A stretch of DNA of 52,691 bases, from positions 1-52,691 of the IMG/VR virus record IMGVR_UViG_3300012920_000056. One strand, written 5' to 3'. Of the stretch, positions 1,826-44,925 are shown piece by piece (within the stretch, counting starts at the first letter, position 1; each line of letters begins with the position of its first letter). The notes below the pieces were generated by a model, which did no database searches, was not told the origin of the DNA, and saw only the letters and a program-made list of their open reading frames with translations. Made by a program: the position numbers and the translations under genes. Source of the DNA: a virus. Its lineage: Duplodnaviria; Caudoviricetes.

Positions 1826-1864
1826 ACCCCGCCCCTTTTGAGCTATGAGGGGTGGGGTTTTTTT
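1826..1864 (+). terminator. Rho-independent terminator
   Basis: ACCCCGCCCCT...AGGGGTGGGGT stem followed by T run. Confidence 0.8.
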
Positions 1865-1865
1865 G

Positions 1866-1943
1866 TAACTTAATGTATATCAGCAACTTACGCCAAACCG
1901 CGCGGAGCCGCCGTGCCATAAACCTTTGATAGTTAACGACTTA
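1866..1943. repeat. 78-bp double-palindrome element, copy 1
   Basis: Arms 1866-1890 and 1919-1943; 28-bp spacer with AAACCGCGCGG. Confidence 0.9.
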
Positions 1944-2008
1944 CAGGAAAATGCAATTTAATTCATTTTTTTCTTGTATTAAGTTGTTTTTTATGCGATA
2001 GTATATAT

Positions 2009-2125
2009 ATGAAAACGAGAGAGATAAAGATCAGAAAAACAATCCTCTTCACCAAGTCAAGACCTCACAAAGTCAAAAACAAGGTGATCCACAGAAAACT
2101 CAAACACAAGGAACAATTAGTATGA
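2009..2125 (+). CDS. small basic peptide (38 aa, MKTREIKIRKTILFTKSRPHKVKNKVIHRKLKHKEQLV)
   Basis: Hand translation; TTGTAT-17-GATAGT-6-ATG promoter; ATGA overlap with next gene. Confidence 0.7.
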   Translation: MKTREIKIRKTILFTKSRPHKVKNKVIHRKLKHKEQLV

Positions 2126-2361
2126 ACATCAATCCTGAATTCGATTCTAACGAAAGACCAAATGTTGAAATGGTAGTCGAGGACGCAATGGGCTATTTAT
2201 TCAATACATTTATCAAACCCCGCGAGGCTGAACTTAACGAAGATGATCTCACATCTGTTGCTATGATTGGCATTATGTTTAAAGACATTGCCGAGAAAGC
2301 CGAGGCATATTATCAAATGCAAGAAAAAGGTTATGAAAAAAACCCTAATTCTTTAAATTAA
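2122..2361 (+). CDS. hypothetical phage protein (79 aa)
   Basis: ORF track; translational coupling to upstream peptide. Confidence 0.75.
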   Translation: MNINPEFDSNERPNVEMVVEDAMGYLFNTFIKPREAELNEDDLTSVAMIGIMFKDIAEKAEAYYQMQEKGYEKNPNSLN

Positions 2362-2399
2362 GTATTGACAAAAAACATTACATCTATATTATAAAAGCT

Positions 2400-3266
2400 A
2401 TGAATAACGAAGAAAACACACAAACCACATCACCTAAAGTCAACCTTCACATTTGCGGAGGTAATCGTTCACTTGTCGATTTCGAGCAAGTTGTTGGAGT
2501 TCCTACTCCACCTGTCGAGTATCGCAAGAAAGAAAACAAAAATGGCGAGCGAGCCGTTTCTTATCAACCAATCGCTCATCATGAGGTAGTTAATCGCACT
2601 AAGAATTTCCTCGATCAAAATGGTTTCACCATTCAAGATGAGGTGCATTCCCTTGCTAGGGCAAACCAACATTACTTTGGTTTATTTGCTGTTGATCATC
2701 CTAATCGTGAAGCGTCAGATCGTGGTTGCGTTGTGGGTATCCGCAATTCTCACGACAAAACATTTCCTGCAGGTCTTTGTGCAGGTGACGCTCCCTTTGT
2801 TTGCGACAACTTGATCTTTACTAATACGATCAAACTCGCTCGCAGACATACTCGCAACATTTTGCAAGATCTCAATTTCACCATCAATCGTGCAATTGGT
2901 AAATTGTTCAACTTTTGGCATGGTCAAGATGCTCGTATCAATGCCTACAAGGAAGTTGAGGTAACCAACGCTCAAGTTAATGATATTGTAATTCGTGCCT
3001 GTAAGGCAGGTGCTTTGCCTAAGTCAAAAATTATTGATGTTGTCGATCAATGGGAATCATCTGATCACACTGAATTTTGGGACAGAAATGTAAACTCTCT
3101 TTACAATGCTTTCACTGAAATTTACAAAGGTAATTTAGTTGCCTTGCCAAATCGTTCTGACGCATTGCATTCAGTTTTAGATTCCGAAGTTAACTTCGAT
3201 ATATCTAATCATGTTGAAAATGTGATCGAAACTGAAGTAATCGAAAACGAATTAGTTACCGCTTAA
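2400..3266 (+). CDS. DUF932-family phage/plasmid protein
   Basis: Motifs YQPIAH, GIRNSHD, FVCDNL, RRHT typical of DUF932; TTGACA promoter at 2365. Confidence 0.75.
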   Translation: MNNEENTQTTSPKVNLHICGGNRSLVDFEQVVGVPTPPVEYRKKENKNGERAVSYQPIAHHEVVNRTKNFLDQNGFTIQDEVHSLARANQHYFGLFAVDHPNREASDRGCVVGIRNSHDKTFPAGLCAGDAPFVCDNLIFTNTIKLARRHTRNILQDLNFTINRAIGKLFNFWHGQDARINAYKEVEVTNAQVNDIVIRACKAGALPKSKIIDVVDQWESSDHTEFWDRNVNSLYNAFTEIYKGNLVALPNRSDALHSVLDSEVNFDISNHVENVIETEVIENELVTA

Positions 3267-3289
3267 ATACGGGTTGTTGTTTGTTGTTA

Positions 3290-3316
3290 GCCCCCCTCAT
3301 TTGAGGGGGGTTTTTT
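3290..3316 (+). terminator. Rho-independent terminator
   Basis: CCCCCCTCA-tt-TGAGGGGGG followed by T6. Confidence 0.85.
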
Positions 3317-3335
3317 ATTGCCTCAAAAAATTTTG

Positions 3336-3413
3336 TAAGTTACTGATTATCAACGACTTATGGAAAACCGCGCGGGCGCGCTGTGCTGTAAGTGCTTGCT
3401 ATTCAATGACTTG
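3336..3413. repeat. 78-bp double-palindrome element, copy 2
   Basis: TAAGTTACTGATTATCAACGACTTA - 28 bp - TAAGTGCTTGCTATTCAATGACTTG. Confidence 0.95.
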
Positions 3414-3478
3414 CAACAAAATGAAATTTAATTCACTTTTTTCTTGCGTTCAGTAGTCTTTTTTGCGATAGTATAAGC

Positions 3479-3670
3479 ATGAAACGAATAATTGAAATCT
3501 TAATGACCCGCGACGGACTTTCCCGTGAAGAGGCGGAGGATCAAGTTACTGCATTTAATTCTGAAATGTGGATGGATGTTGGACAAGGCGGAAGCCTTTT
3601 TGAATGGGAAGATGCTTTCTCAAGTGAGTTCGGATTGGAGCCTGATTTTTTCGAAGATTTAGTGCTTTAA
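3479..3670 (+). CDS. hypothetical acidic protein (63 aa)
   Basis: ORF track; TTGCGT-17-GATAGT-6-ATG promoter. Confidence 0.8.
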   Translation: MKRIIEILMTRDGLSREEAEDQVTAFNSEMWMDVGQGGSLFEWEDAFSSEFGLEPDFFEDLVL

Positions 3671-3708
3671 TGCTTGCAATTGCATAAAAATTTGTTTAGT
3701 TTTATATC

Positions 3709-4434
3709 ATGAATCTATTATCAAACCCATCTAAAATGCCTTGCTTAGGCTTCAACATTCCCGCTTTCAAGTATTGCCCAGCCGCTCAACTTATGGCAAA
3801 AGTCAAAGACAAAGCAAAAAAGTTTATTTGTGATGCTTGCTATGCTTGCAAAGGTTTTTATATGTTTGCCAATGTCAAACAAAGCTTACAAGACAAGGCA
3901 AATTTTGTAACAAAGTCTTTACATCAAGACAACGGGCAATCTTTTGTAGATGAGATATCCAAGCAAATTAAGACAAAGTATTTCGACAAGCAAGGTAACA
4001 AAAAAGTTTTAAAGAATGTCAACACAGATCTTTTTCGCGTTCATGATTCAGGAGATCTTTTTTCCCCTAAGTATATTGAAGCGTGGATTAAGATTTGCCA
4101 AAACTTTCCAACTATTCGCTTTTGGTTTCCAACTCGTGAGTGGGCAAGGGATAGTCAATTGCCTTCACTTCGCAAGCTTGCAAGTTTAAAGAATGTTTGC
4201 TTAAAACCAAGTGCTTTATATGTAGATGAAAAAGCTCCCAAGATCGATGGATTAGATGCGGGAACTTCCGTCTATAGCTCAAAAGAGAAAGCCGAGCAAG
4301 ACGGGCATTTTGTTTGCCCCGCAACTTATGTTAAGGATGAAAACGGCAAGATTTTAGCGACTTGTAACGCTCATAATTGCAACTTATGTTTTATCAAAGG
4401 ATGCAAAAAAGGTATTGCATATTTAGCCCACTAA
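3709..4434 (+). CDS. GP88-like (gene product 88) Cys-rich, putative Fe-S protein
   Basis: SKMP, CP...CDACYA.KG.Y, FRVHDSGD and C-terminal Cys cluster; TTGCAA-17-TAGTTT-6-ATG promoter. Confidence 0.7.
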   Translation: MNLLSNPSKMPCLGFNIPAFKYCPAAQLMAKVKDKAKKFICDACYACKGFYMFANVKQSLQDKANFVTKSLHQDNGQSFVDEISKQIKTKYFDKQGNKKVLKNVNTDLFRVHDSGDLFSPKYIEAWIKICQNFPTIRFWFPTREWARDSQLPSLRKLASLKNVCLKPSALYVDEKAPKIDGLDAGTSVYSSKEKAEQDGHFVCPATYVKDENGKILATCNAHNCNLCFIKGCKKGIAYLAH

Positions 4435-4449
4435 TGCTACATTAAAATT

Positions 4450-4620
4450 ATGGATTATTACGACTCAGCCGAAGAAATTACTATTACTCAAGATCGTGCC
4501 TTGCAAGAATTAGCAAAACACGGAATCACTTCTAATGAAGAGATTTTAGAATTTTTTGCCGATGTAGGCGAGCAAGAAGAGTATGATGCACAAAAAGTTT
4601 TGGTTTGGTTAGGATACTAG
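4450..4620 (+). CDS. hypothetical acidic protein (56 aa, MDYYDSAEEITITQDRAL...WLGY)
   Basis: Hand translation; TTGCAT-17-TACATT-6-ATG promoter. Confidence 0.75.
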   Translation: MDYYDSAEEITITQDRALQELAKHGITSNEEILEFFADVGEQEEYDAQKVLVWLGY

Positions 4621-4710
4621 CTTTAAACTCAAAATAGCAAATAGAAACTTGCCAAATACCCCCGTCCTCCAGGGGGGCTTGGCGTTTACAGCAAAAGCTC
4701 AAAAATTCCA

Positions 4711-4788
4711 TAAGTTACTGATTATCAACGACTTATGGAAAACCGCGCGGGCGCGCTGTGCTGTAAGTGCCTGATATTCAACAGGTTA
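4711..4788. repeat. 78-bp double-palindrome element, copy 3
   Basis: Left arm and spacer identical to copy 2; right arm 4764-4788. Confidence 0.95.
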
Positions 4789-4855
4789 CAACAAAGTGAA
4801 AAAAAGTTCACTTTTTTCTTGCGTTAACTGACAAAAAGTTTTAATGTGTTTATAT

Positions 4856-5251
4856 ATGATTAACTACTACATACCAAACTCAATTTCACAATTCAATCCA
4901 AAACCTTCTATGCTAGATTTTGACGATCTAGATTTTCAACCACATCGTGGTGCTGATGATGCAGTCCAAGCAAGACTTGACTTTGGCAACGGGCTAGAAA
5001 TTTCTGTTGTTGCAGGTAATGACGATAGAAGAGGATTATATGGTAGTGTGAAAGAAGATTTATACGAAGTTGCAATCTTTGATAAAAACGGCATGATTCC
5101 ACTTTCTCCTTCTGACGATGTTGTCGGATGGCAATCTCCTGCTCAAGTATCTATCCTAATGGCAAAAGCTCAATCTGAAGGAAGTGTTTGGGTTGACGAG
5201 CTAATCGAAGACAAAGCAGAATTTAGAAGAGAATTAGGGCTTGACTACTAA
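4856..5251 (+). CDS. hypothetical phage protein (start re-called at MINYY)
   Basis: ORF track 4844..5251; promoter TTGCGT 4819 favours ATG 4856. Confidence 0.7.
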   Translation: MINYYIPNSISQFNPKPSMLDFDDLDFQPHRGADDAVQARLDFGNGLEISVVAGNDDRRGLYGSVKEDLYEVAIFDKNGMIPLSPSDDVVGWQSPAQVSILMAKAQSEGSVWVDELIEDKAEFRRELGLDY

Positions 5252-5275
5252 AACAAATTAAACTACATTACTATT

Positions 5276-5539
5276 ATGACAGAAGAACAAAGACTCGCAA
5301 TTATCGCTAACGCACATCGTGAATCCAAAGGTTTGCCAACTGATTCCTCAGTATTGGAATTAATTGCAGATTTACAAGCTGAACAATTAGTTGTTGAGCA
5401 TGGATTGCAAGATGTAGATCAAGATGACATCTCGGACGAAAAACAATTCCTTCTTACTGATGTTGCCGAAGACATTGACGAAGAAGATCAAGACATTGGA
5501 GTATCTGATGAAATGAAAGGAGTTTATTATGATAATTGA
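5276..5539 (+). CDS. highly acidic small protein (87 aa)
   Basis: ORF track; 25 D/E vs 5 K/R; TTGACT-17-TACATT-6-ATG promoter. Confidence 0.8.
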   Translation: MTEEQRLAIIANAHRESKGLPTDSSVLELIADLQAEQLVVEHGLQDVDQDDISDEKQFLLTDVAEDIDEEDQDIGVSDEMKGVYYDN

Positions 5540-5616
5540 GTTGTTAATGTTCTCGCCTTGGGTATTTGTATTTTATATGATATGGGCAGGATGAGATAGG
5601 TATTGCCCAAATACTT

Positions 5617-5639
5617 AGCCCCCGAAAGGGGGCTTTTTT
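5617..5639 (+). terminator. Rho-independent terminator
   Basis: AGCCCCC-GAAA-GGGGGCT followed by T run. Confidence 0.9.
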
Positions 5640-5660
5640 GTGCTTGTGCAAGCAGTTATG

Positions 5661-5738
5661 TAAGCCATTGATTATTAACGATTTACAGCACAAACCGCGC
5701 GGGCTGCCTGCTGTAAACCTTTGATAGTTAACGACTTA
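5661..5738. repeat. 78-bp double-palindrome element, copy 4
   Basis: Arms 5661-5685 and 5714-5738; right arm identical to that of copy 1. Confidence 0.95.
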
Positions 5739-5793
5739 CAACAAAAGTAAGAAAAAGTTTGACATTGCCTGAAAATTCGTTCATATTGTACTT

Positions 5794-6000
5794 ATGAATC
5801 ACTCAGGAAACTCCATAAAAAAAGTATTAAAGCAACTACGGAAATGCGTTGACATTTCCGAGATCAAACAAACTGCAAAAGGTTACATGATTTGTGCCAA
5901 GAATGGCGAGCAAAATCTCATTCATCATGGCTCGAATTGTTACCACCCTTTACGCAGGTGGTTAAAGAAGAATACTTCTTTAAAGAATTTAACTTTTTAG
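5794..6000 (+). CDS. small basic hypothetical protein (68 aa)
   Basis: ORF track; TTGACA-17-CATATT-6-ATG promoter. Confidence 0.8.
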   Translation: MNHSGNSIKKVLKQLRKCVDISEIKQTAKGYMICAKNGEQNLIHHGSNCYHPLRRWLKKNTSLKNLTF

Positions 6001-6036
6001 CTTGCAATTATTTTAAATTTAGTTTAGTTTACTATT

Positions 6037-6222
6037 ATGACAGCAATTAAAAAACTACTCAACAGAATCGACGAATTACAACAAATCATTGATCTTGAAA
6101 GTGACTCAGCTAATGCAGGAGATAATCGCTCAAGAGCATTGGTTATATATGCAGAAAATGAAAAGGATGAGGTGCAAGATCGCATTGATGCTCTCGCTCT
6201 TTGGTATGCAATTTCTAGATAA
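6037..6222 (+). CDS. hypothetical protein (61 aa)
   Basis: ORF track; TTGCAA-17-TAGTTT-6-ATG promoter. Confidence 0.8.
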   Translation: MTAIKKLLNRIDELQQIIDLESDSANAGDNRSRALVIYAENEKDEVQDRIDALALWYAISR

Positions 6223-6235
6223 GAAAGGAAAAATT

Positions 6236-6463
6236 ATGACAGATACAACATACAACGGATGGAAGAACTGGGCAACTTGGAATGTCGCCCTTTGGCTAGG
6301 AAATGACGAATATCTTTACAAGCTTTCCCGCAGGTTTGTAAACTACAAGGATTTTGCAAATGAGCTTGAAGAAATGGGAACGCTCACCACCCCTGACGGG
6401 GCGAGTTACAAGGATGACGATCTTGATACTTACGCACTTGACGAGTGGCTTATGGACGAATAG
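6236..6463 (+). CDS. phage hypothetical protein with YNGWxNxxTWNVALW motif (start re-called at MTDTT)
   Basis: ORF track 6089..6463; AAGGA SD before ATG 6236. Confidence 0.75.
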   Translation: MTDTTYNGWKNWATWNVALWLGNDEYLYKLSRRFVNYKDFANELEEMGTLTTPDGASYKDDDLDTYALDEWLMDE

Positions 6464-6467
6464 TCCA

Positions 6468-6545
6468 TAAGTTACTTATAATCAACAAGTTACAGCACAG
6501 CTCGCGGGGTCGCCGTGCCATAAGTGTCTGATATTCAACGATTTG
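6468..6545. repeat. 78-bp double-palindrome element, copy 5
   Basis: Arms 6468-6492 and 6521-6545; 28-bp GC-rich spacer. Confidence 0.9.
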
Positions 6546-6611
6546 CCACAAAATTAAAAAAACATTAAAAAAAAGCTTGCAATTAGTTTTTTTCTTTGCT
6601 AGATTACTATC

Positions 6612-6800
6612 ATGACTAAAACAGAAATGCTTAACGAAATCGCCAATCTTCACAAAGCTTTAAAAAGCTCTGCTGACCTCACGCCTGGAGATCGCATTGC
6701 GATCCGCAACGAGATTGGTCGCCTTGAGGACGAGGTCAATCTGCTCGACTTTCAGGAGCAACCCGACATTGACTGGGGCTTTCACTCCCAATGGGAGTGA
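6612..6800 (+). CDS. hypothetical protein (62 aa), last + strand early gene
   Basis: ORF track; TTGCAA-17-TAGATT-6-ATG promoter. Confidence 0.8.
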   Translation: MTKTEMLNEIANLHKALKSSADLTPGDRIAIRNEIGRLEDEVNLLDFQEQPDIDWGFHSQWE

Positions 6801-6802
6801 CT

Positions 6803-6880
6803 TAAAGTCCTGATTATCAGCGACTTACAGCAAAGTCGCCCCGCGCGGTTTGCCATAAACCCTTGATATTCAAGGATTTA
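6803..6880. repeat. 78-bp double-palindrome element, copy 6 (spacer inverted)
   Basis: Arms 6803-6827 and 6856-6880; spacer contains CCGCGCGGTTT, the reverse complement of the usual core. Confidence 0.95.
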
Positions 6881-6899
6881 TAGAAACCATTTTTAAGTG

Positions 6900-7208
6900 T
6901 TAAAAAACGAGAAGATCAGGCAACTTTGTGTTGCTTGCGAACCAATCGGATGAGTCAATTTCTTCCCCGTTTAACACAGGCTCGAATTTGAATTGGCAAA
7001 CCCCTGCGTTGGCTATGCCGTTGACGCGTTCGCGTGTGGTGGGCGTATTCCATCCCGCAAGCGACCATCTGACAAGTCCGTCAGGATCACGCTTGACAAT
7101 TGCGTTGCCATGCAACCAAACGGTTTGCCCGTCTGTCTCGGTATTGCCTACTTTTAAAGATCTGCCTTCCTCAAAGGCTTTTTTGATTTGTGCTGTGACT
7201 TTTCTCAT
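6900..7208 (-). CDS. phage hypothetical protein (102 aa)
   Basis: ORF track; LHGNAI and GWNTPTTRERVN motifs; ATGA coupling with upstream gene. Confidence 0.8.
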   Translation of the reverse strand: MRKVTAQIKKAFEEGRSLKVGNTETDGQTVWLHGNAIVKRDPDGLVRWSLAGWNTPTTRERVNGIANAGVCQFKFEPVLNGEEIDSSDWFASNTKLPDLLVF

Positions 7209-7381
7209 ATTTCTTCGGTGTTGATGATTAAAACCTTGTTGCCTTGTTTACTTTGTTCTTTTTTAAGCTCTTTTGCTATTTGCATGGCTTGGGCTTGTGA
7301 TTTTGCGTTATCTACGAGTTTCCCAAAAAAGCGAATGTCGAACCAATTCGAGAAGTTGATGTTTTTTCCTATTGTGATCAT
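7205..7381 (-). CDS. hypothetical protein (58 aa, MITIGKNINFSNWFDIRFFGKLVDNAK...)
   Basis: Hand translation; TTGCAA-17-TAGTTT-8-ATG promoter on - strand. Confidence 0.75.
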   Translation of the reverse strand: MITIGKNINFSNWFDIRFFGKLVDNAKSQAQAMQIAKELKKEQSKQGNKVLIINTEEI

Positions 7382-7420
7382 ATAACTATAAACTAAAAGA
7401 TTTTTTGTTGAATTGCAAAC

Positions 7421-7609
7421 TTATTTTGCAAAAAGTGGATGAATTTTGACATCCTCAAAACGAATGCCAACTTTACGATTTGTGCGGTATGGGCGAACCA
7501 TTGCGATAGTGCCGAGGTCTTCATGCTCGGTAGCTTGGATGAACTGAAAGATTTTGCCATCCCTTGAGAGGAGAACATCACCTTTTTTGAATTTTGTTGT
7601 CTTTGTCAT
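7421..7609 (-). CDS. hypothetical protein (62 aa, start re-called at MTKTTKFKKGD)
   Basis: ORF track 7421..7780; TTGCAA-17-TAGAGT-8-ATG promoter. Confidence 0.75.
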   Translation of the reverse strand: MTKTTKFKKGDVLLSRDGKIFQFIQATEHEDLGTIAMVRPYRTNRKVGIRFEDVKIHPLFAK

Positions 7610-7664
7610 ATAAGTATACTCTAAGAAATTTTTTGTCGAATTGCAAGCAAAAAGCGATTTATTT

Positions 7665-7844
7665 TCAATTATTTTTGTGCGTGAATTCGGCTTGGGCTTT
7701 CCAATGATCCAACCAAGCTTGATTTTCTGCCAAAAGATTTTTGGCAATCTGAACCATAACAGCGTCGCTGTCGTGGGCAATGGTTTCCCGTAGGATCACC
7801 ATTTCGGCTTTAACTTTTGAGAGGAGTCTTACTGAATTTTCCAT
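7665..7844 (-). CDS. hypothetical protein (59 aa, MENSVRLLSKVKAEM...)
   Basis: Hand translation; TTGCAA-16-TAGTTT-6-ATG promoter. Confidence 0.75.
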   Translation of the reverse strand: MENSVRLLSKVKAEMVILRETIAHDSDAVMVQIAKNLLAENQAWLDHWKAQAEFTHKNN

Positions 7845-7895
7845 AATTATAAACTAGCAGCTTAAAGGTTTTATTGCAAGAAAAAAGTTTGCGAA

Positions 7896-8069
7896 TTATA
7901 AACTTTTATTTGCGGCATCTTTTATCATTTGAATATTCCAAAGGTGACCGCCTGGACATTCCCAAAGCATATGATTAGCATGAAGGCAGACTACAAGCTT
8001 AAGTTCATTGTCTTTGATGAACTTGTCGATTCCTAATTTTGTGAGATGTGTTTGAATTTCGTTTGTCAT
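7896..8069 (-). CDS. WECPGGH-motif small protein, paralogue A (start MTNEIQ)
   Basis: ORF track; TTGCAA-17-TAGTTT-8-ATG; paralogue at 9193..9339. Confidence 0.8.
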   Translation of the reverse strand: MTNEIQTHLTKLGIDKFIKDNELKLVVCLHANHMLWECPGGHLWNIQMIKDAANKSL

Positions 8070-8209
8070 ATAAGTATAAACTAGCACGGTAACAAGCTAA
8101 TTGCAAGAAAAAAACAACAAAGTTATTCACAAAAGTAAAGTTTTTTGCGACAGTATTGTGCAATATTTTAGTTGCCCGAATTGGCACGGAATCTGTATCA
8201 AGTTTTACG

Positions 8210-8287
8210 TAAGTTGTTAAGCATCAACGACTTACAGCAAAACCCGCGCGGGCGGCCTGCCATAAACCCTTGATACTCAAGGACTTA
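8210..8287. repeat. 78-bp double-palindrome element, copy 7
   Basis: Arms 8210-8234 and 8263-8287; 28-bp spacer with CCCGCGCGGG. Confidence 0.95.
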
Positions 8288-8301
8288 TGGAAACCGTTGT
8301 G

Positions 8302-8397
8302 TTATCCTGCTATTAGGTGGGCTAATCCTGCAACACCAAACAAGATGACTGATCCACCTAAACCTGTGACTAAAACTAATGTGACTAATTCTCTCAT
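8302..8397 (-). CDS. small membrane peptide (31 aa, MRELVTLVLVTGLGGSVILFGVAGLAHLIAG)
   Basis: Hand translation; ATGA overlap with upstream gene; single hydrophobic helix. Confidence 0.6.
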   Translation of the reverse strand: MRELVTLVLVTGLGGSVILFGVAGLAHLIAG

Positions 8398-8618
8398 AAA
8401 CTTTCTATAAACTCCTTGAATGCAAAGATGTGGTATCCTTGCGTAAGATTGACCTTTTCTGATATGTCAATGATGTTGCCGTTGTTATAATTTTTCTCGA
8501 AACATTCTTGCCCGATTTGAACATCGTATTGCTCACGCTTATAATCGGGGTGAGCAGATGAGCAGATGATAGGAATGCCTGTTGAACCTAATTTTGTAAG
8601 TATCCAATGAGCTTGCAT
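8394..8618 (-). CDS. hypothetical protein (74 aa)
   Basis: ORF track; co-directional cluster. Confidence 0.7.
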   Translation of the reverse strand: MQAHWILTKLGSTGIPIICSSAHPDYKREQYDVQIGQECFEKNYNNGNIIDISEKVNLTQGYHIFAFKEFIESL

Positions 8619-8627
8619 GATACTAGA

Positions 8628-8852
8628 TTAGGCTTTTCCGTTCTCCATGTCAATCAATTTTTGACGAGATTTTACAGCAAGCTCGACAGCGTGTAGTGCG
8701 TCCAAGATTGCCATGCCTTGCGTGATTGTTCCTTTCCATTCGGGGCTATTGGATTCTTTCGCAAGGTGTCTTAGGTTGCCCAATGCTTTTGAGAGAGAAA
8801 GACCGAGATCCAACTCGGTGTCTAATTTTTTTCTTATTGCGTAGTCTATCAT
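8628..8852 (-). CDS. hypothetical protein (74 aa)
   Basis: ORF track; TTGACA on - strand at 8884-8889. Confidence 0.75.
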   Translation of the reverse strand: MIDYAIRKKLDTELDLGLSLSKALGNLRHLAKESNSPEWKGTITQGMAILDALHAVELAVKSRQKLIDMENGKA

Positions 8853-8885
8853 ATATTACCTTTCTAATGTATTTTAAAAACTTTG

Positions 8886-9107
8886 TCAAACATTTCTTTC
8901 GACTGATCTCCAACCAAAAGCACGAACTTGATCCTCGTGGCGAGCTTGTGGCAAGAGGCTTTTAAGCGTCTCGATGCGAGCAAGAATCCACTTGCGAGTG
9001 TCGCCTGTGGCAGGTACAAACTCACGCAGATCGTGGTCGAAGTGGTCGCAATCAAGGCGACGCTCTAAGCGTTCAATGTCGAATTTAATGTCTTCTGTTT
9101 TACTCAT
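8886..9107 (-). CDS. hypothetical protein (73 aa)
   Basis: ORF track; TTGCAA-17-TAGATT-6-ATG promoter. Confidence 0.75.
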   Translation of the reverse strand: MSKTEDIKFDIERLERRLDCDHFDHDLREFVPATGDTRKWILARIETLKSLLPQARHEDQVRAFGWRSVERNV

Positions 9108-9150
9108 ATTACTAATCTAAGAAATTTTTTGTTGAATTGCAAGAAAAAAA

Positions 9151-9198
9151 CGACTTTTTTCGATTTTTTTTCGATTTTTTCGATTTTTTCGATTATTT
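9151..9198. repeat. tandem repeat of CGA + T-tract, 5 units of 9-11 bp
   Basis: cgactttttt cgatttttttt cgatttttt cgatttttt cgattattt. Confidence 0.85.
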
Positions 9199-9339
9199 TA
9201 ACGCTCCTTTAATCATTTCGAGCGTCCAAACATGACCGCCAGGACATTCCCAAAGGTCAAAAGCCTCGGACATCGGACTTGCTTGGATGCGAACAAGACC
9301 ATTCTCTTCAATGAATTTTTGTATTTTTTTATCTAACAT
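9193..9339 (-). CDS. WECPGGH-motif small protein, paralogue B (48 aa)
   Basis: Hand translation MLDKKIQKFIEENGL...LWECPGGHVWTLEMIKGALK; TTGCAA-17-TAAATT-6-ATG. Confidence 0.8.
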   Translation of the reverse strand: MLDKKIQKFIEENGLVRIQASPMSEAFDLWECPGGHVWTLEMIKGALK

Positions 9340-9556
9340 ACTTAAAATTTAACAAAGCAAACAACTAATTGCAAGAAAAAAAGAAAAAAGTTATGTGCGA
9401 CCCCCTACCCGTTTTATGAATTGCAAAAGTCAACTTTATTTCAGGATAGGGCGGGGGGTGGTAATTTTCAAAATCAAAATGTAAATCCATAATTTCTATA
9501 TATTGCTTGACCCGAAAAAAATCGGCGCCTATTTTTATTTCAGATATAAATCATAA

Positions 9557-17015: not shown

Positions 17016-17076
17016 AGTTAAAAGTTAACTTTGGACTTTAAATGGACTTTTATTAGACTTTTGTGTATTATAATTT

Positions 17077-26695: not shown

Positions 26696-26724
26696 AAAGC
26701 TCTTGGGAAACCAAGAGCTTTTTT
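26696..26724 (+). terminator. Rho-independent terminator
   Basis: AAAGCTCTTGG-GAAA-CCAAGAGCTTT followed by T run. Confidence 0.9.
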
Positions 26725-26742
26725 GTGTATAATATATTAGGT

Positions 26743-29187: not shown

Positions 29188-29226
29188 TTGAAAAAATATA
29201 TTTTTATAATTATTATAATATAGGTT

Positions 29227-31544: not shown

Positions 31545-34500
31545 ATGGCTTTAGGTAGAGGAAATATAGAAATTGATATACGCGGTAACGTAGATACCGC
31601 AGGTATTGCGCGTCAGGTTACCGCAGCTGAAAAGCAGATTCGTCCTCTTAATATAAGTTTAAACGATAAAGGGTTTAGGCAGCCATTGGGTCGAATTAGT
31701 GGCGACATAGCTGAATTTCAAAAATCTTTAGATGCTTCCGTAGCTCGTACTCTGGCATTTGGTGCTGCAGTAGGCGTAATTAACGCAGTATCTGATGGCT
31801 TTAAATCTCTAGTGCAAAGTGCTGTAGAGGTAGAAAAAGCATTAACTGATATTAATGTAATTTTAAATTTAAACAGTGGTGGTCTGCAAAATTTTTCTGA
31901 TCAATTGTTTGATGTAGCAAAAAATACAGGTCAAAGTTTTCAAACTATAGCAGAAGCAGCCGTAGAGTTATCACGTCAAGGCTTAGGGGCGGAAGAAACG
32001 CTGTCAAGAATAAATGACGCCATGATTCTAACAAGGCTTTCTGGTATGGATGCTGCAAAATCAGTAGAAACACTGACTGCTGCCATTAATAGTTTTGGAG
32101 ATACCGCTTTGACTACGACTAGCCTAGTAAATAAGCTGGCTAGTGTTGATGCTGCTTTTGCCGTAAGCACCGAAGATTTAGCCAATGCGCTTGCTAGATC
32201 TGGAGCTAGCGCTCAAGCTGCTAAAGTTGATCTTAATGAATTATTGGCTGCTGTCACTAGTGTTCAGCAAATAACTGCTCGTGGCGGTTCTGTTATTGGT
32301 AATGCTTTTAAAAGTATTTTTACAAGGCTTCAAAGATCAGGAGTTAGAGAAGCTTTAGAAGAAATTGGTGTCGCAACTACAGACGCCGCAGGAAATATTA
32401 GAGGAGCGCTAGATATTTTACAAGATTATGCAACTGTATATGGCACTTTAACAGACTCCCAAAGAGCTTATACAGATGAATTAGTCGCAGGAGTATTTCA
32501 AATCAATAATTTGCGAGCTTTAGTAAAAGATTTAGGTAGTGACTACAGTATTTACCAAAGAGCTTTAGAGGAATCAAATGGCGCAACTGATCAAGCTGTA
32601 CGTAGGAATGAAAAACTACAAAAAACATTATCTTCTTTAATTAATGAATCAGCAGCAAACGCAAAAGAATTAGCTTCTTCGCTCGGCGAACTTATAGCTA
32701 CCCCTGGGCTAGAAAATTTATTAGAAATTTTTAATTCAATAGCTGGTGCATTACGAGAATCTCTAGATCCAGAACAAGGATTTAGTTTAATAAGAACTAT
32801 GTTTGATTCTATAGGAAGGTTTATATCTGGCCCTGGGCTTGTTATCATAGGAGCTGCTTTTATTAAATTATTTAAATTTATTACCCAGCAAAGTTTAAAA
32901 GCAGTACAAGAAGTTTTTAAAATTGGTAGTGCAGCAAATAAAGTTGCTGACGCAGAAGCAAAGATTGGCTTTTTATTAAAAAATAATCGTACATTATACG
33001 AAGCTATTAGTAACGAAGCTTTGACACACGAGCAGCGCGAAGAGTTAGTTTTGCAAACCATTAAACAACAAAATAGAGCTTATGAGCAGCAACAAGCTTT
33101 GATATCCAGGCTAGCAAAAGCTAGGACTGTACAATCAGCAGTAAATGTAACTTCTAAAGCGCAAGGGTTTATCCCTAGAGCGTCAAAAGGTTATATGCCA
33201 CATTTTGCAGAAGGAACTGATTTTTCTCCAAATAAATTGCGTAAAGGAAAAGAAAAAGCAAAAGCTAGCGGTTTCATACCAAATTTTTCTAGCGAAATTG
33301 AAGGCGCTATTCATGCTGAAAAGAGCGCTATATCTGCTGGAGTAGGAGGGGCATCAAAAAGCGCAAAGCCAAAAGTATTAAAGAATTTTCCAATGGGCGG
33401 TGGTAAGCGACAAACTATCGTTGCAAATACTGACGAAGTTATTGTTCCACGTTTTGGTGGTGGAACAGGTTCAGCAATATTTAATCAAGAAATGATTAAA
33501 AAAGCAGGCATGCCAGGTGATGCAATACCAGTGTCCAATGGATATATTCCAAATTATGCTCAGTCTAAGCTACAAACAGATAAAGTTTTTCAAGATTTAT
33601 TAAGTGATTTTCAAGGTGTTGATGTTGATGTGCAGAGAGATATGTCTGGATTCGGCATGTTAACCGCAAAAGGAAAACGAGGAAACTTGGAAACTACCAG
33701 AAAGCCAGGGTTTTCAAGAGAAGACAAACTAAAAATTATCGACAGCATTGGTGGCTCTAAATTAAACAAAGATGATAAAAGTTTTTTACTGACAACAATC
33801 GGCGGAAAAAAGAAAACTAGATTTTCAAATATACCAGCGCAAACTATAGAATCTGCAGATCCAGAAAAAATTAGCGGAAAAGTAGGCGCATTAAACAATT
33901 TAATTAATCCGCATATAGCTGATGCAGTTGCAGAAGTGGCAACAAATATATATACTCGAGTATTAGGCGATGAAGTAAGCGCTCAAAATTTAGTTAAAAA
34001 CGTTCGTGCTTCAGCTAATGCTGATCAAGGAATAGTTTCTAAAGGAGCTCAAGGAGCTATTTTTGAATCTGCTATACGGCTTGGTTCTAAAGAGTCAGCT
34101 AAAAATCTAGCCAAAGATGATAAAGATGCTATTTGGGATTTTGAAGAATCAAGCGCAATGAGTGCAGATTTAAAAGCTCTGTTCTTTCCTACTTCTAATA
34201 TTTATAAAGCAGACGCAAAAAGAACTGGAGATCAAAATAATTTAAGGGAAGTTGTTGATAAAGCATATAAAGCTGATTTCTCAGATCAACTGCGAGAAAT
34301 TTACGCCCGCAATTGGTCCCCTATTGTTAGTGCTGCAGCTAAAGTGGCTCCATCAAAACAAAAAACAGAAAGAAAAAGGACGGGCACAAATTTAGCGGGC
34401 GGTTTTATTCCTAATTTTATTACTAGCATTCCTGATGATGCAATAAGACCTTTTCAGGCTTCAAAAGATTTTTTCATACCCCCAAAAGAAAACGACAGTA

Positions 34501-37500
34501 TTAAAACGGAAAAAGTAAGCGTACTTGAGCCAGGAGAAGCTCGCCTTGGCAAGGGAAAAGCTGGCGGGCAAAGAGCAGATGGGAGGGATGTATTTCAAGC
34601 GCTAATTGATATTGAATATGATAGAAGAAATATCGAAGAATTTGAGAAAATATCAAATCCAATTGCAAATAAATTAATTGATGGAAATGTCGAGTGGTTA
34701 AACAAAATAGAAAAAACTTCCTCTAAATTAATTGATAGAAATTTAGCTGATCCATCAAATATACAAGGTATACAAACTCAAGTTAGTAATTTGCAATTAA
34801 TAAAAAAAGCTAAATCAAAAGGAATCAAAGCTCAAGATATAGTTGCAGGAAAAAGCGCAAAAGGAACCGCAAAGCAAAAAAAATATTGGGAAAAATACCA
34901 AACAACCATAAAAAACGGGAAATTTAAAGACCAAAAATTTATGGAAAAAGGAATCCGAGATAAAGTTAAAGGTGCCATAGGGGAGTATGCAGCAGCAATA
35001 AAAGAAGGCACGACAGTTAATACTAAAAATTCTTATTTTGACTTAGTAAATGGTAAAGAAGTCAAGACAAAGAGAACGACTCCTGCTTCAAATTTACTCA
35101 AGAAAGGTGCTAATGAATACTTAAAAACTCTTTCTGAAAAAAATAATCTTTTTAACCAAAGAACTGACAACAAGAAGCTGAATAAAATTACTGTGATTAT
35201 GCCGAGAGACGGTAGCGTTAATTTTCAAGCGGCAGATGGATTCATACCAAATTTCTTTGGTGATAAAATTGGCTGGAAAATTGATAAAGCCAAAGGTGAC
35301 TATGCTATTACAGGAAGCAATTCTAAGCTAAGCGGTTTCAGTAGTTACCTCAAAGAAGTGTCTGAAAAAGATTCGAAAATAGTTAGCCCAAGGGCTGCAG
35401 AAATGTTTGAAAAACGAGTCAAAGAAGTTAACGCACAACATTTAAAAGATAAAGAAGAAACTTCAAGAAGATCGCCTATCGGTTTTGGTAGGCAAGGAGC
35501 AAAACATTATGCAGCGATGGATGCTGTATCCAGAAGAGAGCGAAGCGTTAGTACAAAAGGATTATTTATCAAAGATCTTGGCAAGCATGTCAAGCAGTAT
35601 AATAAACATGATATTTTCGCAGTAGATAAGTTTGGCTCGTATGATTCTTTTTTTGGTGAAGGTTATATTCCAAATTTAATTAATAGACCATTAACTACTA
35701 AAGAACCAACTCAACCAAGAAAACTAGACCTTCACTGGATTAGCTCAGTTGAAAGTAGTGGAACATCAGAATTAAGAAGAATATACAAAGATATAGAACA
35801 ATCCGCAAAAGTAGGAAAACCCTATACTCAAATTGATGCTGGATTTGTAGTTGGACCTAGAATACCAAAAATCTTAGTAGAAGGCCACAAGCTTTTAAAT
35901 AAAAGTAGAGCTAGCGGAAAAAACATTCCAAAAATGAAGCTGAATGGAGTGATGACTCCAGGTGACATAACCAAGTATATTTATCGGAATAAAGAAAAGT
36001 TAGCCGCTGGTGATAAATTCACTACAAAGGCAGATTACATGCCAGGAGAAGAAAAAGAGGTTGAGAAATACCTCAAAATCATGGGCTTGAATCCATCATC
36101 TTTCAATAGCGTAGATTTAGATGAAATACAAATGTTTAGAAATGGATTTGCTGGAGGTTTTATACCTAATTTTGCAAACCAAGTATATGATAAAGATAAA
36201 ATTCAACCACAAGAAGCTGGAGAAATTTTACAAAATATTTTATCCAACAAAAAAAAGAAAGATTTACTTATTGGACCGTCTGGAGTTGGTAAGTCAACCT
36301 TAGCTGCAAAATATGGTGAGTTTATAAAAAGCATTGAAGATGCTAAGGAGGCTAGCTCTTATACAATATTATCTGGAGCAGGAAAAACAAAAGCTGGTGG
36401 AATGTCTCCAGCATTATTAAAAATTATTGAGGCTGTTAATGGTTCTGGCGGCAAAGTATCTTACCTTTCTGCGGATGATAAAACCATAGAGGAAAGAAGA
36501 GAAAAAAGAATTTCTAAACCGCTTAAAGGTGATCTACGTTCCGAAGGCCAATTAAAAGGCACACGATTCGCGCCTAAGAATCAACCTGATTTTGCAAATG
36601 TAGTTAAAAGAGCTGCTAATAGATTCGAAATTATTAATGCAGCTCAAGGTGTTATTCCAAATTTTGCACTTAGTAATTCTATGATAGAAGGTTTGCGCGC
36701 AAAGCTTCGTCCAGGCAGTGGAGCTACAGAAGCAGAAAAAAAGAACGCAAGAAAGATACTAGACAAAGAAGAGCGCTCAACATCATTTATTAAAGATGCA
36801 GCAATAATTGATGACCTTCAGTTCTCTAAAAAACAAGTACAGGGAGCGATAGCAGATGTTACTGAAAAAAGAAATTCACTTAATCTTGATTCACAGCCAA
36901 TTGCTATTGAACAAAAAGATATAACAAAATTCGCAGAAGAATATATTAAAAAAGTAAACAGAGCAAAACGCGCTTTTACTAACGAAAAGTTATTTGGTAC
37001 TCCTTTAAGCACGAGCGAAATCAGCATGGCCTTAAAAGGTCAAGGTGGATATCAAAGAGGCAAATACATACCAAAACATTTTAAAAACATGGCTGACGGA
37101 TATATTCCAAATTTTGCCAATTTTGTTCCTAATTATGTTATGCCGCAAAGAGATTTTGCAAAATTTAGCGTAGCTATAGCTAGGTTTAATAGAAAAAATT
37201 TAATAACACCGCCATTAAAAGCGTTAGATTCAAGAGAGTTAATAAAAATTCCAAAACGGAATCCAGAAGTAGCTAGAGAAACGGTTGAAAATGTTAGACA
37301 ATTCATTAGTTCTGATGAATACCGAGCTTTAGATCCAGGAATCCAAAAAGAAGTTCAAAAGCACTATAATAAAATTGCCATTAGAACTGGAGTTAGTGAT
37401 GCAAGTCGTCCATTTACTCGACATTCAGATCCAAATTTTGAAGGCAGAATTGCTGCCGCTAAAGGCCTGATTCCTAATTTTGCTAATGAATTACAAGAAG

Positions 37501-44882: not shown

Positions 44883-44925
44883 TTTAATTAATTTTTTAAT
44901 GATATAATTATATAATATATATACC

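Follow-up and report, generated by a model that had tools for sequence, protein, structure and literature searches.

What are the seven 78-bp repeats that separate the small gene cassettes of this uncultured marine phage, and what function may they fulfil there? These questions were addressed in the window, i.e. the whole stretch of 52,691 bases that was analysed, being a contig fragment of which the right end cuts through a gene, and in related IMG/VR records.

Anatomy, spacing and spread of the elements

A repeat search of the window returned one repeat family, with seven copies in register over 83 nt (Table 1), each made up of two arms around a GC-rich spacer. A weight matrix composed of the 14 arms of these elements, with which both strands of the window were scanned, retrieved all of them with scores of 17.6 – 33.2 (forward scan) and revealed no further arms in the 52,691 bases, the best non-arm score being 7.9 forward and 11.7 reverse. 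Both searches thus recovered the seven copies of the original prediction, which had also placed none beyond 8.3 kb and all of them between genes, as was found for each copy. Similarly, the paired IUPAC pattern was matched twice, versus 0.00 times expected from 100 shuffles. The sequence CCGCGCGG, said to be usual in the spacer, occurred in six of the seven. The arms, described as palindromes of 25 bp, were indeed present, but their palindrome reaches approximately 35 bp (TGYYR-TAAGT...ACTTA-YRRCA). Overall likeness among the copies was 60 – 78%, with a fixed set of positions being invariant.

Table 1. Elements, promoter-like and terminator-like sequences, and one cassette of the window (positions in bp)
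Feature	Position	Strand	Repeat-family start	Details
E1	1866..1943		1861	left arm 1866-1890 (weakest left arm, score 17.6); GC-rich spacer 1891-1918; right arm 1919-1943
E2	3336..3413		3331	arms 3336-3360, 3389-3413; spacer 3361-3388
E3	4711..4788		4706	arms 4711-4735, 4764-4788
E4	5661..5738		5656	arms 5661-5685, 5714-5738
E5	6468..6545		6463	arms 6468-6492, 6521-6545; spacer without CCGCGCGG
E6	6803..6880		6798	arms 6803-6827, 6856-6880; between convergent genes 6612-6800 (+) and 6900-7208 (-)
E7	8210..8287		8205	arms 8210-8234, 8263-8287; flanked by minus-strand genes
Promoter-like after E1 (predicted)	1974..2011	+		TTGTAT, 17 nt, GATAGT, ATG 2009; 78 bp from right-arm centre
Promoter-like after E2	3444..3481	+		TTGCGT ... 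ATG 3479 of gene 3479-3670; 78 bp from arm centre
Promoter-like after E3	4819..4858	+		TTGCGT, 17 nt, TAATGT, ATG 4856; 80 bp from arm centre
Promoter-like after E4	5759..5796	+		TTGACA, 17 nt, CATATT, ATG 5794; 68 bp from arm centre
Promoter-like after E5	6577..6614	+		TTGCAA ... TAGATT ... ATG 6612; 79 bp from arm centre
Terminator-like GC hairpin and T run	1833..1865	+		end of cassette A, immediately before E1
Terminator-like hairpin and T run	3289..3322	+		end of cassette B, 14-24 bp before E2; 10 pairs, 7 G-C
Terminator-like hairpin and T run	5617..5644	+		end of cassette D, before E4
Cassette F	6546..6802	+		gene 6612-6800; bounded by E5 and E6

The comparison set consisted of 126 unique elements (252 arms) from the window and its IMG/VR relatives; these were picked with the matrix built on the window, so that they are not an unbiased sample for the invariance figures given below, and a single mismatch at an invariant arm position would still clear the matrix threshold. 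Arm spacing, measured from start to start, is lineage-specific, the geometry being invariant within a genome only. It was 53 bp for 24 elements, including all seven of the window, 46 – 48 bp for 41 elements, and 41 – 42 bp for 61 elements. The predicted constancy of 25 + 28 + 25 bp thus holds for the window and its closest relatives but not for other lineages (41 – 52 bp), and an invariant distance of about five helical turns does not generalise. Indeed, all helical phases of arm spacing are used across lineages, indicating that no single two-bend geometry is essential. A wider IMG/VR scan found, among the matches listed, 11 of the 13 spacer lengths from 16 to 28 bp, with 18 and 19 bp absent among GC-rich spacers. 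Spacer G+C content amounted to approximately 80 – 100%. Spacer length and sequence are genome-specific, copies within one genome having a common length and much common sequence, and the arm motif is nearly constant across lineages with different spacers. Elements occur in hundreds of contigs of uncultured aquatic phages, with at least 162 stretches in IMG/VR; the nearest cultured phages have less than 35% identity in TerL, DnaE and GP88. The complete relative G003 (194.5 kb) contained seven pairs in one stretch of about 9 kb (183.7 – 192.7 kb) and none in the rest of its genome.

Promoter coupling and candidate binding proteins

A gene start was located 64 – 81 bp from an arm centre in 89 of the 126 elements (right side only, 69; left side only, 10; both sides, 10). 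The remaining 37 included E6, with the promoter absent at the usual distance, and E7, with no gene start in this range from either arm. An ATG opening an ORF was found 70 – 79 bp from the right-arm centre in 69/126 elements, versus at most nine in any other 10-bp bin. Alignment of 75 upstream regions gave AAATTTAATTCAC-TTTTTTC-TTGCGT-N17-TAGTGT-N6-ATG. This fixed spacing (about 78 bp from the arm centre) to an apparently leaderless start with a conserved sigma-70-type promoter had been overlooked in the earlier reading. Element and adjoining promoter form a unit of about 155 bp that travels together; the downstream context was varied in more distant lineages. The ATG at position 2009 opens a basic ORF of 37 codons. 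Terminator-like hairpins occurred upstream of copies 1, 2 and 4 of the window, and of 29/126 elements by a strict rule. Together with the promoter-like sequences after copies 1 to 5, they agree with the predicted location of these five copies between a cassette end, often with a terminator, and the next promoter.

Each arm is a symmetric 25-bp site, YAA-N4-YTGAT-W-ATCAR-N4-TTR. Across the 252 arms, A2, A3, T9, A17, T23 and T24 are invariant or nearly so. Position 18 is a purine in 126/126 elements for each arm, position 25 a purine in 123/126 and 126/126, position 8 a pyrimidine in 125/126 for each arm, and position 13 is A or T in 112/126 and 120/126; position 14 (the A of WATCAR) is weak (A in 67/126 and 46/126). 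Both positions 13 – 25 and the reverse complement of positions 1 – 13 match WATCARNNNNTTR, the integration host factor (IHF) consensus, which is thus present on both strands of each arm with a common centre, its R, Y and W degeneracies being kept in 112 – 126 of the 126 elements per arm. According to the part of the source at hand (10.1101/382655), this consensus occupies one half of a footprint of more than 25 bp, in which IHF introduces two kinks 9 bp apart and TTR is critical. That the arms match it in both orientations had escaped the earlier reading. The N4 positions are non-random, with CGAC, GCAC and GGAC preferred, which is a feature of these arms that is absent from the published IHF consensus and could indicate another protein. 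In addition, the inner palindrome TTGAT-N-ATCAA by itself resembles the sites of other dimeric regulators.

Concerning the origin of a binder, the HU/IHF family (PF00216) was found in none of the five relatives' records (0/5), making a phage-supplied member of this family unlikely. The arm motif was retrieved 4,614 times in one Microscillaceae metagenome-assembled genome, versus 0 times for a reversed-pattern control, and 182 of 202 sampled sites fell outside ORFs of at least 100 amino acids. Such saturation of a bacterial genome points to a cellular binder.

The element may best be read, with a probability of about 0.5, as a double-stranded DNA module that binds an architectural protein of the IHF/HU kind twice, upstream of host-type promoters. 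Each arm would be the site of a dimer kinking the DNA at steps 9 bp apart, 8|9 and 17|18, a placement modelled on the 9-bp rule (10.1101/382655) and on structural background. The GC-rich spacer would keep the two arms 41 – 53 bp apart, the centre of the nearer arm lying about 78 bp upstream of the start, just past an A/T-rich UP-like tract. A host protein, present before phage gene expression, would sharply bend the DNA at both arms, and each small cassette would be transcribed from a sigma-70-like promoter, beginning with a first gene that is apparently leaderless. Bending may set up each putative early transcription unit and insulate it from its neighbour, either because the upstream DNA is thereby wrapped towards RNA polymerase or because silencers that bind AT-rich DNA are kept away from the promoter, the latter being the role of IHF at the Mu early promoter. 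The paired protein-binding site of the original prediction probably stands, as only consensus positions are conserved, covariation is lacking, and folding is unremarkable in five of the seven copies. The G+C demand on the spacer receives no account from an IHF/HU-type binder.

Alternatively, and with clearly less than an even chance, the arms may be operators of a dimeric regulator with a different fold, encoded by the phage or delivered with the virion, which would bind upstream of all early promoters and switch their cassettes off or on together, with the likeness to IHF sites being incidental. Symmetric sites and genome-specific spacers are what a lineage-specific protein spanning or reading the spacer would require. 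The N4 preferences also speak for this reading. Such a binder could hide among the small early proteins, most of which lack a family assignment, and genes for HTH-bearing proteins and a sigma factor are present in the relatives. No candidate binder was identified. The inner 11-mer TTGATTATCAA is also listed for two papers on Streptococcus pyogenes, presumably as the site of the MarR-family protein FabT. However, an arm motif that hardly changes while the spacers differ, and that saturates a bacterial genome, argues for a cellular binder. Moreover, the degenerate positions agree with the IHF code letter by letter, and the first-gene promoters must fire before phage proteins exist.

A bolder form of the IHF/HU-type reading, which seems doubtful, is that of a new class of portable phage 'boundary-enhancer', in which a homodimeric host protein of the HU/IHF type would occupy two fully symmetric, high-affinity U-turn sites clamping a GC-rich core closed to AT-seeking silencers, every early cassette firing simultaneously and independently on entry, and in which the 25-bp word would serve some bacteria as an architectural code throughout the genome. 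If true, it would imply an undescribed sequence-specific nucleoid protein and phages exploiting such a protein.

Exchange of cassettes at the elements

Order, content and orientation of the cassettes differ among the relatives, and the breakpoints fall in the elements. Changed partners were found in 44 of the 69 element-by-genome comparisons in which both 200-bp flanks were at least 80% identical; in 26 of these 44 cases, both flanks adjoined different elements in the other genome. For example, cassette F was absent from the relatives L001 and L011, which carried a single chimeric E5/E6 element in its place, and the same joint, of position 6480 to position 6816, was present in contigs of two of the four runs examined. 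The crossovers of chimeric elements were spread over at least four places: the centre of the left arm, the border between arm and spacer, the spacer itself and the right arm. The relative G003 encodes a RecA-like protein and a PD-(D/E)XK nuclease, which are enough for homologous exchange, and repetition of the module itself leads to homologous recombination between copies. Comparison of the relatives shows that such recombination deletes, inserts, reorders and inverts cassettes, and the varying crossover points fit a homologous process. Among relatives, the elements mark the places at which small gene cassettes were reshuffled. The predicted shuffling is thus retained as an evolutionary pattern, given that order changes, indels and inversions break at the elements, but not as a dedicated site-specific mechanism.

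Recombination would be the sole consequence if the elements were selfish or neutral dispersed repeats (MITE/REP-like) that spread with an attached promoter, which is improbable. Travel as one unit with the promoter, spacer likeness within genomes (consistent with concerted evolution), orphan copies and a motif highly iterated in a bacterial genome fit this explanation. Against it, copies of 60 – 78% likeness whose fixed positions never vary indicate functional selection rather than recent copying, the architecture is preserved across lineages with different spacers, and neither terminal duplications nor a transposase nor a set of near-identical copies came to light.

It is highly unlikely that the elements are targets (att/lox/attC kind) of a site-specific recombinase moving the cassettes. 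Tyrosine (PF00589) and serine (PF00239) recombinase domains were each found in 0/5 relatives' records, four of which are rated 100% complete, and no site-specific recombinase was present among the 150 of 215 G003 ORFs scanned with Pfam. Each arm does have inverted repeats around a short asymmetric centre, cassettes are gained, lost and inverted exactly at the elements, and in one chimera the crossover lies at the arm centre, where four letters are shared; yet the other crossovers have no fixed position, and the G003 proteins mentioned above suffice.

Equally implausible is a folded single-stranded DNA or RNA, with a hairpin or cruciform acting as terminator, processing site, N4-kind hairpin promoter or priming site. 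Three imperfect palindromes follow one another, short spacers are palindromic in some cases, folding is good for copies 6 and 7 (z -4.76 and -2.09), and pair 7-19 gave a weak within-genome symmetry signal in three genomes (z 2.5 – 2.8), which was negative in other genomes. Standard pairs, however, made up 77.7% of cells versus 77.2 ± 0.5% after shuffling (95/500 shuffles as high), and the covariation score was 0.129 versus 0.123 ± 0.007, with separate counts for both arms in agreement. Five of the seven copies folded like shuffles (DNA z 0.63 to -0.79), the GC core lacks a T run after it, and little transcription is expected across most copies, given their position after a terminator and ahead of a promoter. 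A structured hairpin element was rejected, as compensatory change was lacking, the fold of those five copies was unremarkable, and no element matched an Rfam family.

Least probable of all is pausing or staging of DNA entry, like an injection-stop signal, for which clustering in one region of about 9 kb of small genes adjoining packaging and structural genes and an exceptionally long tape-measure protein (4,445 amino acids) would speak, whereas every record is a 'linear' contig, the distance of the cluster from the contig ends differing between records, and 7 – 14 dispersed promoter-tied copies are unlike the needs of a stop signal.

Significance and comparison with known systems

The element is real and widespread, and is a variant of already known kinds of system. 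If the IHF/HU-type reading is true, it would be a compact piece of DNA by which early transcription units of phages are organised and insulated, and would point to a sequence-specific architectural protein with a symmetric site, with which one bacterial genome is saturated. In addition, the idea of regulatory repeats as joints for the swapping of accessory genes would be extended beyond T4-type phages, with crossovers visible inside the repeat. In genome annotation, the 25-bp word and its occurrence in pairs flag the putative early region and its promoters in a lineage without a cultured member.

A first comparison concerns the PeSL (promoter-early stem-loop) cassettes of T4-type phages, which, in the parts of the sources at hand (PMC2839356, PMC4122927), combine a sigma-70-like promoter with a terminator stem-loop in recombining repeats. 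In both cases, small composite regulatory repeats are found in plastic regions, where they separate small non-essential genes, and homologous recombination between copies results in indels, replacements and shuffling, as far as those parts describe it. In the present elements, the predicted sigma-70-like promoter has a strong consensus, and a terminator-like stem-loop is found at some copies only. The present phages are uncultured siphophages of about 200 kb, and the likeness considered is one of architecture. They have an extra dominant part, namely two symmetric 25-bp predicted protein sites around a GC-rich spacer, which those parts of the sources do not describe for PeSLs.

Secondly, an IHF site lies upstream of the early promoter pL of phage lambda. 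Similarly, upstream IHF counteracts H-NS at the early promoter (Pe) of phage Mu, according to the excerpt at hand (PMC8501957). The IHF site of these systems activates and relieves H-NS silencing. Here too, a match to WATCARNNNNTTR lies about 70 – 130 bp upstream of a presumed early promoter of the host RNA polymerase, but the candidate site is symmetric in both halves, doubled, GC-spaced and repeated before many promoters.

Thirdly, TF1, an HU-family protein of Bacillus phage SPO1, has preferred sites among early promoters. Both cases would involve the binding of an IHF/HU-family dimer to specific sites among the early promoters of a large phage, but TF1 is phage-encoded, whereas PF00216 was found in none of the five relatives' records.

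Lastly, the RIB/RIP and BIME-1 repeats of Escherichia coli are intergenic, with one IHF site between two GC-rich REP palindromes; they are chromosomal and occur mostly at operon ends. The present elements, intergenic as well, likewise combine IHF-like sites with a GC-rich palindromic unit, but in the inverse order, two IHF-like sites surrounding one GC-rich core.

Geometry, spread and promoter linkage of the elements

A repeat search of the window retrieved one family of seven copies (E1 to E7), located where the original prediction had placed a double-palindrome element. A weight matrix built from the 14 arms of these copies, scanned over the whole contig on both strands, gave scores of 17.6-33.2 for the arms (forward scan) and of at most 7.9 (forward) or 11.7 (reverse) for everything else. 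Only the 14 arms were thus retrieved and, as predicted, nothing comparable was present after 8.3 kb. In all seven copies the spacing between the arms was 53 bp and the location was intergenic, and CCGCGCGG was present in six of the seven spacers. In addition, the paired-arm pattern matched twice in the window, versus 0.00 matches expected. Together, the repeat family, the matrix, the spacing and the intergenic location confirm the element.

Relatives were gathered via the GP88-family protein of cassette C (3709-4434), which gave 31 IMG/VR loci, four of them belonging to records that span 194-214 kb and have a completeness rating of 100%. Nineteen loci (L001-L018 and L027) carried 5-14 paired elements each, and twelve loci with GP88 at 57-71% identity carried none at the threshold used. 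Among the 126 unique elements analysed after removal of duplicates, arm spacing was 53 bp in 24, 46-48 bp in 41 and 41-42 bp in 61. Within one genome the spacing was constant to within 1 bp, as claimed for the window, but lineages differed (41-53 bp); therefore, invariant geometry is a property of the genome and not of the family. When IMG/VR was scanned for the pattern, at least 162 more stretches came up, holding 192 matches. Among the matches listed, spacer G+C was at least 70% in 151 of 192, and spacers measured 16 to 28 bp, with 11 of the 13 lengths used (none at 18 or 19 among the GC-rich ones) and 25 as the commonest. Mean spacer G+C was 82%, versus 32-41% for the window. In G003, a complete relative phage of 194.5 kb, all seven pairs lay within 183.7-192.7 kb; the other 185 kb contained no pairs and only single weak scores (13.8 at most). 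Near-identical DNA was not found in cultured phages, and term searches of the literature retrieved no description of the element. When the element and its promoter were used together as the query of a more distant search, weak matches alone were obtained, in nine records (E 0.1-0.5), six of which were Bacteroides caccae phages, one with a one-sided ATCAACGACTTA in an intergenic stretch; these matches were set aside as too weak.

The elements were linked to gene starts, defined as an ATG opening an ORF of at least 35 codons. In 69 of the 126 elements, the right-arm centre was 70-79 bp away from such an ATG, every other 10-bp bin holding nine or fewer. When starts at 64-81 bp were scored on both sides (n = 126), they occurred on the right in 69, on the left in 10, on both sides in 10 and on neither in 37. 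Alignment of 75 upstream regions at the ATG revealed an A/T-rich tract, TTTTTTC, TTGCGT, 17 bases, TAGTGT and 6 bases. This order suggests that the first gene is leaderless and lies behind a sigma-70-type promoter with an UP-like tract, transcription being expected to start at the A of the ATG. In the window, E1, E2 and E4 were preceded by terminator-like hairpins; E6 lay between convergent genes, and neither E6 nor E7 had a start at 64-81 bp. In lineages further removed, the context downstream of the elements was more varied. The best-supported reading of the element, based on these sequence comparisons, is that of a promoter-upstream architectural module. Its two symmetric arms, on either side of a GC-rich core, would be candidate sites for an IHF/HU-type host protein, and the module would hold a fixed link to a host-type promoter.

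Three further features were found near the elements. After E1, a candidate ORF of only 37 codons, very basic in composition, begins with the ATG at the predicted start site and precedes gene 2122-2361; this short ORF falls outside the 40-aa ORF list. Upstream of E7 lies a copy of the element-linked promoter core, TTTTTTGCGACAGTAT, directed towards the element; this arrangement is opposite to the usual one, and the copy may be a rearrangement remnant. Within the cassettes, a second promoter-like motif (TTGCAAT, ~16 nt, TAGTTTA, ~6 nt, ATG) precedes at least nine small genes, the ATG being again at the expected start site (leaderless).

Coordinates of elements and other features in the window
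Feature	Position	Strand	Distance to gene start (bp)	Source
E1	starts at 1866		78	
E2	starts at 3336		78	
E3	starts at 4711		80	
E4	starts at 5661		68	
E5	starts at 6468		79	
E6	starts at 6803			
E7	starts at 8210			
37-codon ORF after E1	2009-2122	plus		
Promoter core upstream of E7	8134-8156	plus		
Second promoter-like motif	3671-3713, 5999-6041, 6574-6616	plus		repeat families of window
Second promoter-like motif	7380-9430	minus		repeat families of window
Tape-measure ORF	31545-44882	plus		
TTTGTGTAT(T)ATAAT-like or TATAAT-rich stretches	17040-17076, 26700-26742, 29190-29226, 44890-44925			

Candidate binders of the arms and the host

Across the 126 unique elements, arm positions A2, A3, T9, A17, T23 and T24 never, or hardly ever, varied; positions 18 and 25 were A/G, positions 1 and 8 T/C, and the centre A/T. 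From the centre rightwards the arm reads W-(A)TCAR-NNNN-TTR, and leftwards on the opposite strand it reads identically. At the level of sequence, each arm half matches the consensus of integration host factor (IHF), with the caveats that the A of WATCAR is weak in the arms, that the N4 positions show preferences whereas the published consensus has none, and that the arm sample was collected with a matrix built from this window. According to passages of 10.1101/382655, this consensus occupies one of the two halves of a footprint that exceeds 25 bp, the protein makes two kinks 9 bp apart, and TTR is the most conserved and most sensitive part of the site. A symmetric IHF-family dimer would be expected to favour the consensus on both halves around a common centre. 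On this view, steps 8/9 and 17/18 of the arm are the predicted kink positions, a placement derived from the 9-bp rule and from the crystal structure.

A host protein is the simplest candidate binder, as the first promoters have to be active before the phage has made any protein of its own; a gene of the HU/IHF family was not found in the records of five relatives. The main rival explanation is that a phage-encoded dimeric regulator uses the same sites. In this respect, the symmetric 25-bp word YAANNNNYTGATWATCARNNNNTTR had 4,614 exact matches in G006, a 6.8-Mb Microscillaceae MAG reached via L049, versus none for a reversed-pattern control in this MAG and 0-8 copies in four other genomes. In 240 kb of G006 (L268-L271 and L284-L303), 202 sites were counted (about 0.84 per kb), 182 of them outside ORFs of at least 100 aa, and the sites were often paired, 44-48 bp apart. 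In G006 the word is a highly iterated intergenic palindrome, and this saturation argues for a putative cellular binder. A search of this MAG for HU/IHF genes gave nothing beyond weak partial matches, which were uninformative.

A scan of one genome per species retrieved 63 stretches with the motif pair. About 13 of these had GC-rich spacers. Their contigs, small except for one of 210,818 bases, belong to MAGs with mixed labels and are probably mis-binned phage. The remainder had AT-rich spacers and came mostly from Bacteroidota. The 210,818-base contig (L058/L059), in a Cellvibrionales MAG, contains true elements with 16-nt spacers of 100% G+C, has a length like that of the phage relatives, and probably represents an entire phage genome that binning assigned to the MAG. 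In a Cytophagales MAG (G007; L060, L068, L077, L094, L096 and L102), at least seven contigs share a near-identical stretch of ~80 bp that includes one complete symmetric site and a 16-nt AT-rich spacer; this stretch resembles the terminus of a mobile element present in multiple copies.

The hints as to the host of the phage conflict. The cyanophage-like accessory genes Kyano_Gp96, PhoH and Hsp20 point towards marine cyanobacteria or SAR11, as do distant relatives of GP88 in phages of Pelagibacter, Synechococcus, Acinetobacter and Mycobacterium, and the canonical -35/-10 geometry of the promoter argues against a Bacteroidota host. On the other side stand the abundance of the motif in Bacteroidota genomes and the few Shine-Dalgarno-like sequences (15 of 58 genes), an ambiguous hint counted here for Bacteroidota. 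The sequence occurs in marine and other aquatic metagenome runs, and the nearest cultured phages share less than 35% identity in TerL, DnaE and GP88. A relation to Synechococcus phage S-SKS1 was rejected, the first 30 kb of its record being unlike the window (baseplate, tail-fibre and photosystem II D1 genes); this phage was absent from the best 15 of 124 records of the TerL search, which included one Microcystis record.

The window, 52,691 bases long and the entire assembly of this phage, is a fragment of its genome, one gene running past its right end. Genes for a large terminase, for tail-tube proteins and for a tape-measure protein of 4,445 aa mark the phage as a long-tailed siphophage; PhoH, Hsp20 and a GAF protein are encoded in the left part, together with many small genes that have no assignment. 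The tape-measure protein is a single ORF with matches to tape-measure families in its N-terminal part (~400-1,200 aa), and if all 4,445 aa measure tail length, an exceptionally long tail would follow. Upstream of several structural genes, near the start codon, TTTGTGTAT(T)ATAAT-like or TATAAT-rich stretches were found, and both kinds may serve as late promoters recognised by the ECF-type sigma factor of G003. At about 70-118 kb, this relative (loci L035-L037) contains a ~40-kb block of sugar-nucleotide, glycosyltransferase and sulfotransferase genes and further encodes DnaE, DnaB, RecA-like, ribonucleotide reductase and ClpB-like genes, a load that is unusual cargo for a siphophage.

Cassette exchange, strand folding and precedents

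BLAST maps revealed the cassettes of the window in different orders and orientations in relatives. Cassette B precedes A in L002, L017, L007 and L009, cassettes E and F are inverted in L010, L013, L007, L016 and L018, and the single gene 31-234 occupies three different places in L002, L003 and L004, with elements on its flanks each time. In a flank test of 69 element-by-genome comparisons (both 200-bp flanks at 80% identity or more), the element context was the same in 25 and altered in 44; in 26 of the altered cases the two flanks abutted two different elements of the other genome, and in 18 one flank mapped away from an element. The elements at such joints were chimeras of both partners, with a switch point that differed between cases: in some it lay in the spacer or the right arm, in others at the centre of the left arm or where arm and spacer meet. 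Gene-content differences among relatives thus break at the elements, in line with the shuffling proposed originally. Cassette F (6546-6802) is absent from L001 and L011, with one E5/E6 chimera in its place. A 6480-to-6816 joint with four shared letters was present in contigs from two of four other sequencing runs aligned to the window; these contigs probably come from the lineage of L001/L011 and hence are not independent of it. Other joints, such as 2112 to 7628 and 4619 to 2027, were set aside, since each came from one contig only and had unknown letters at the junction.

A tyrosine or serine recombinase domain was not found in the records of five relatives and the crossover points varied, which makes site-specific recombination at the elements less likely and points to cassette exchange by homologous recombination between repeats. 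The 150 ORFs of G003 that were scanned, out of 215, include those for a RecA-like protein and a PD-(D/E)XK nuclease.

A function of the elements as a folded strand is less likely as well. Arms acting as hairpins would be expected to change in pairs at their variable positions, and paired change was not seen. In the 126 left arms, standard pairs made up 77.7% of cells, a share equalled or exceeded in 95 of 500 shuffles (shuffle value 77.2 +/- 0.5), with a covariation score of 0.129 versus 0.123. Similarly, Watson-Crick counts in both arms (pairs 4-22 to 8-18) equalled the shuffle expectation, G/G was the commonest state of right-arm pair 6-20 (50 of 126), and mutual information over all column pairs ranked neighbouring positions and lineage effects highest, with no helices. 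Within single genomes, pair 7-19 gave a weak positive signal in three (z 2.5-2.8) and a negative one in others, which agrees with a small set of tolerated quarter-site variants (CGAC, GCAC and GGAC before TTA) better than with a helix. Copies 6 and 7 of the window fold well as single-stranded DNA, the other five do not surpass shuffled sequences (z 0.63 to -0.79), and no Rfam family matches any element. The spacer as a hairpin was rejected, its partial palindromy being confined to the 16-17-nt class and inseparable from G+C richness. That the elements are selfish repeats, or that they pause DNA entry, is likewise less likely than a promoter-upstream module.

With such a module, cassette exchange would be a by-product of its being repeated, the module acting as the joint. 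This resembles the promoter-early stem-loop (PeSL) cassettes of T4-type phages, for which homologous recombination between repeats is the mechanism proposed (PMC2839356 and PMC4122927). For the transcriptional part of the proposed module, a precedent is IHF upstream of the Mu early promoter, where, according to a passage of PMC8501957, it counteracts H-NS. By analogy with Mu, and as a speculation, the GC-rich core could be a stretch closed to AT-seeking silencers.
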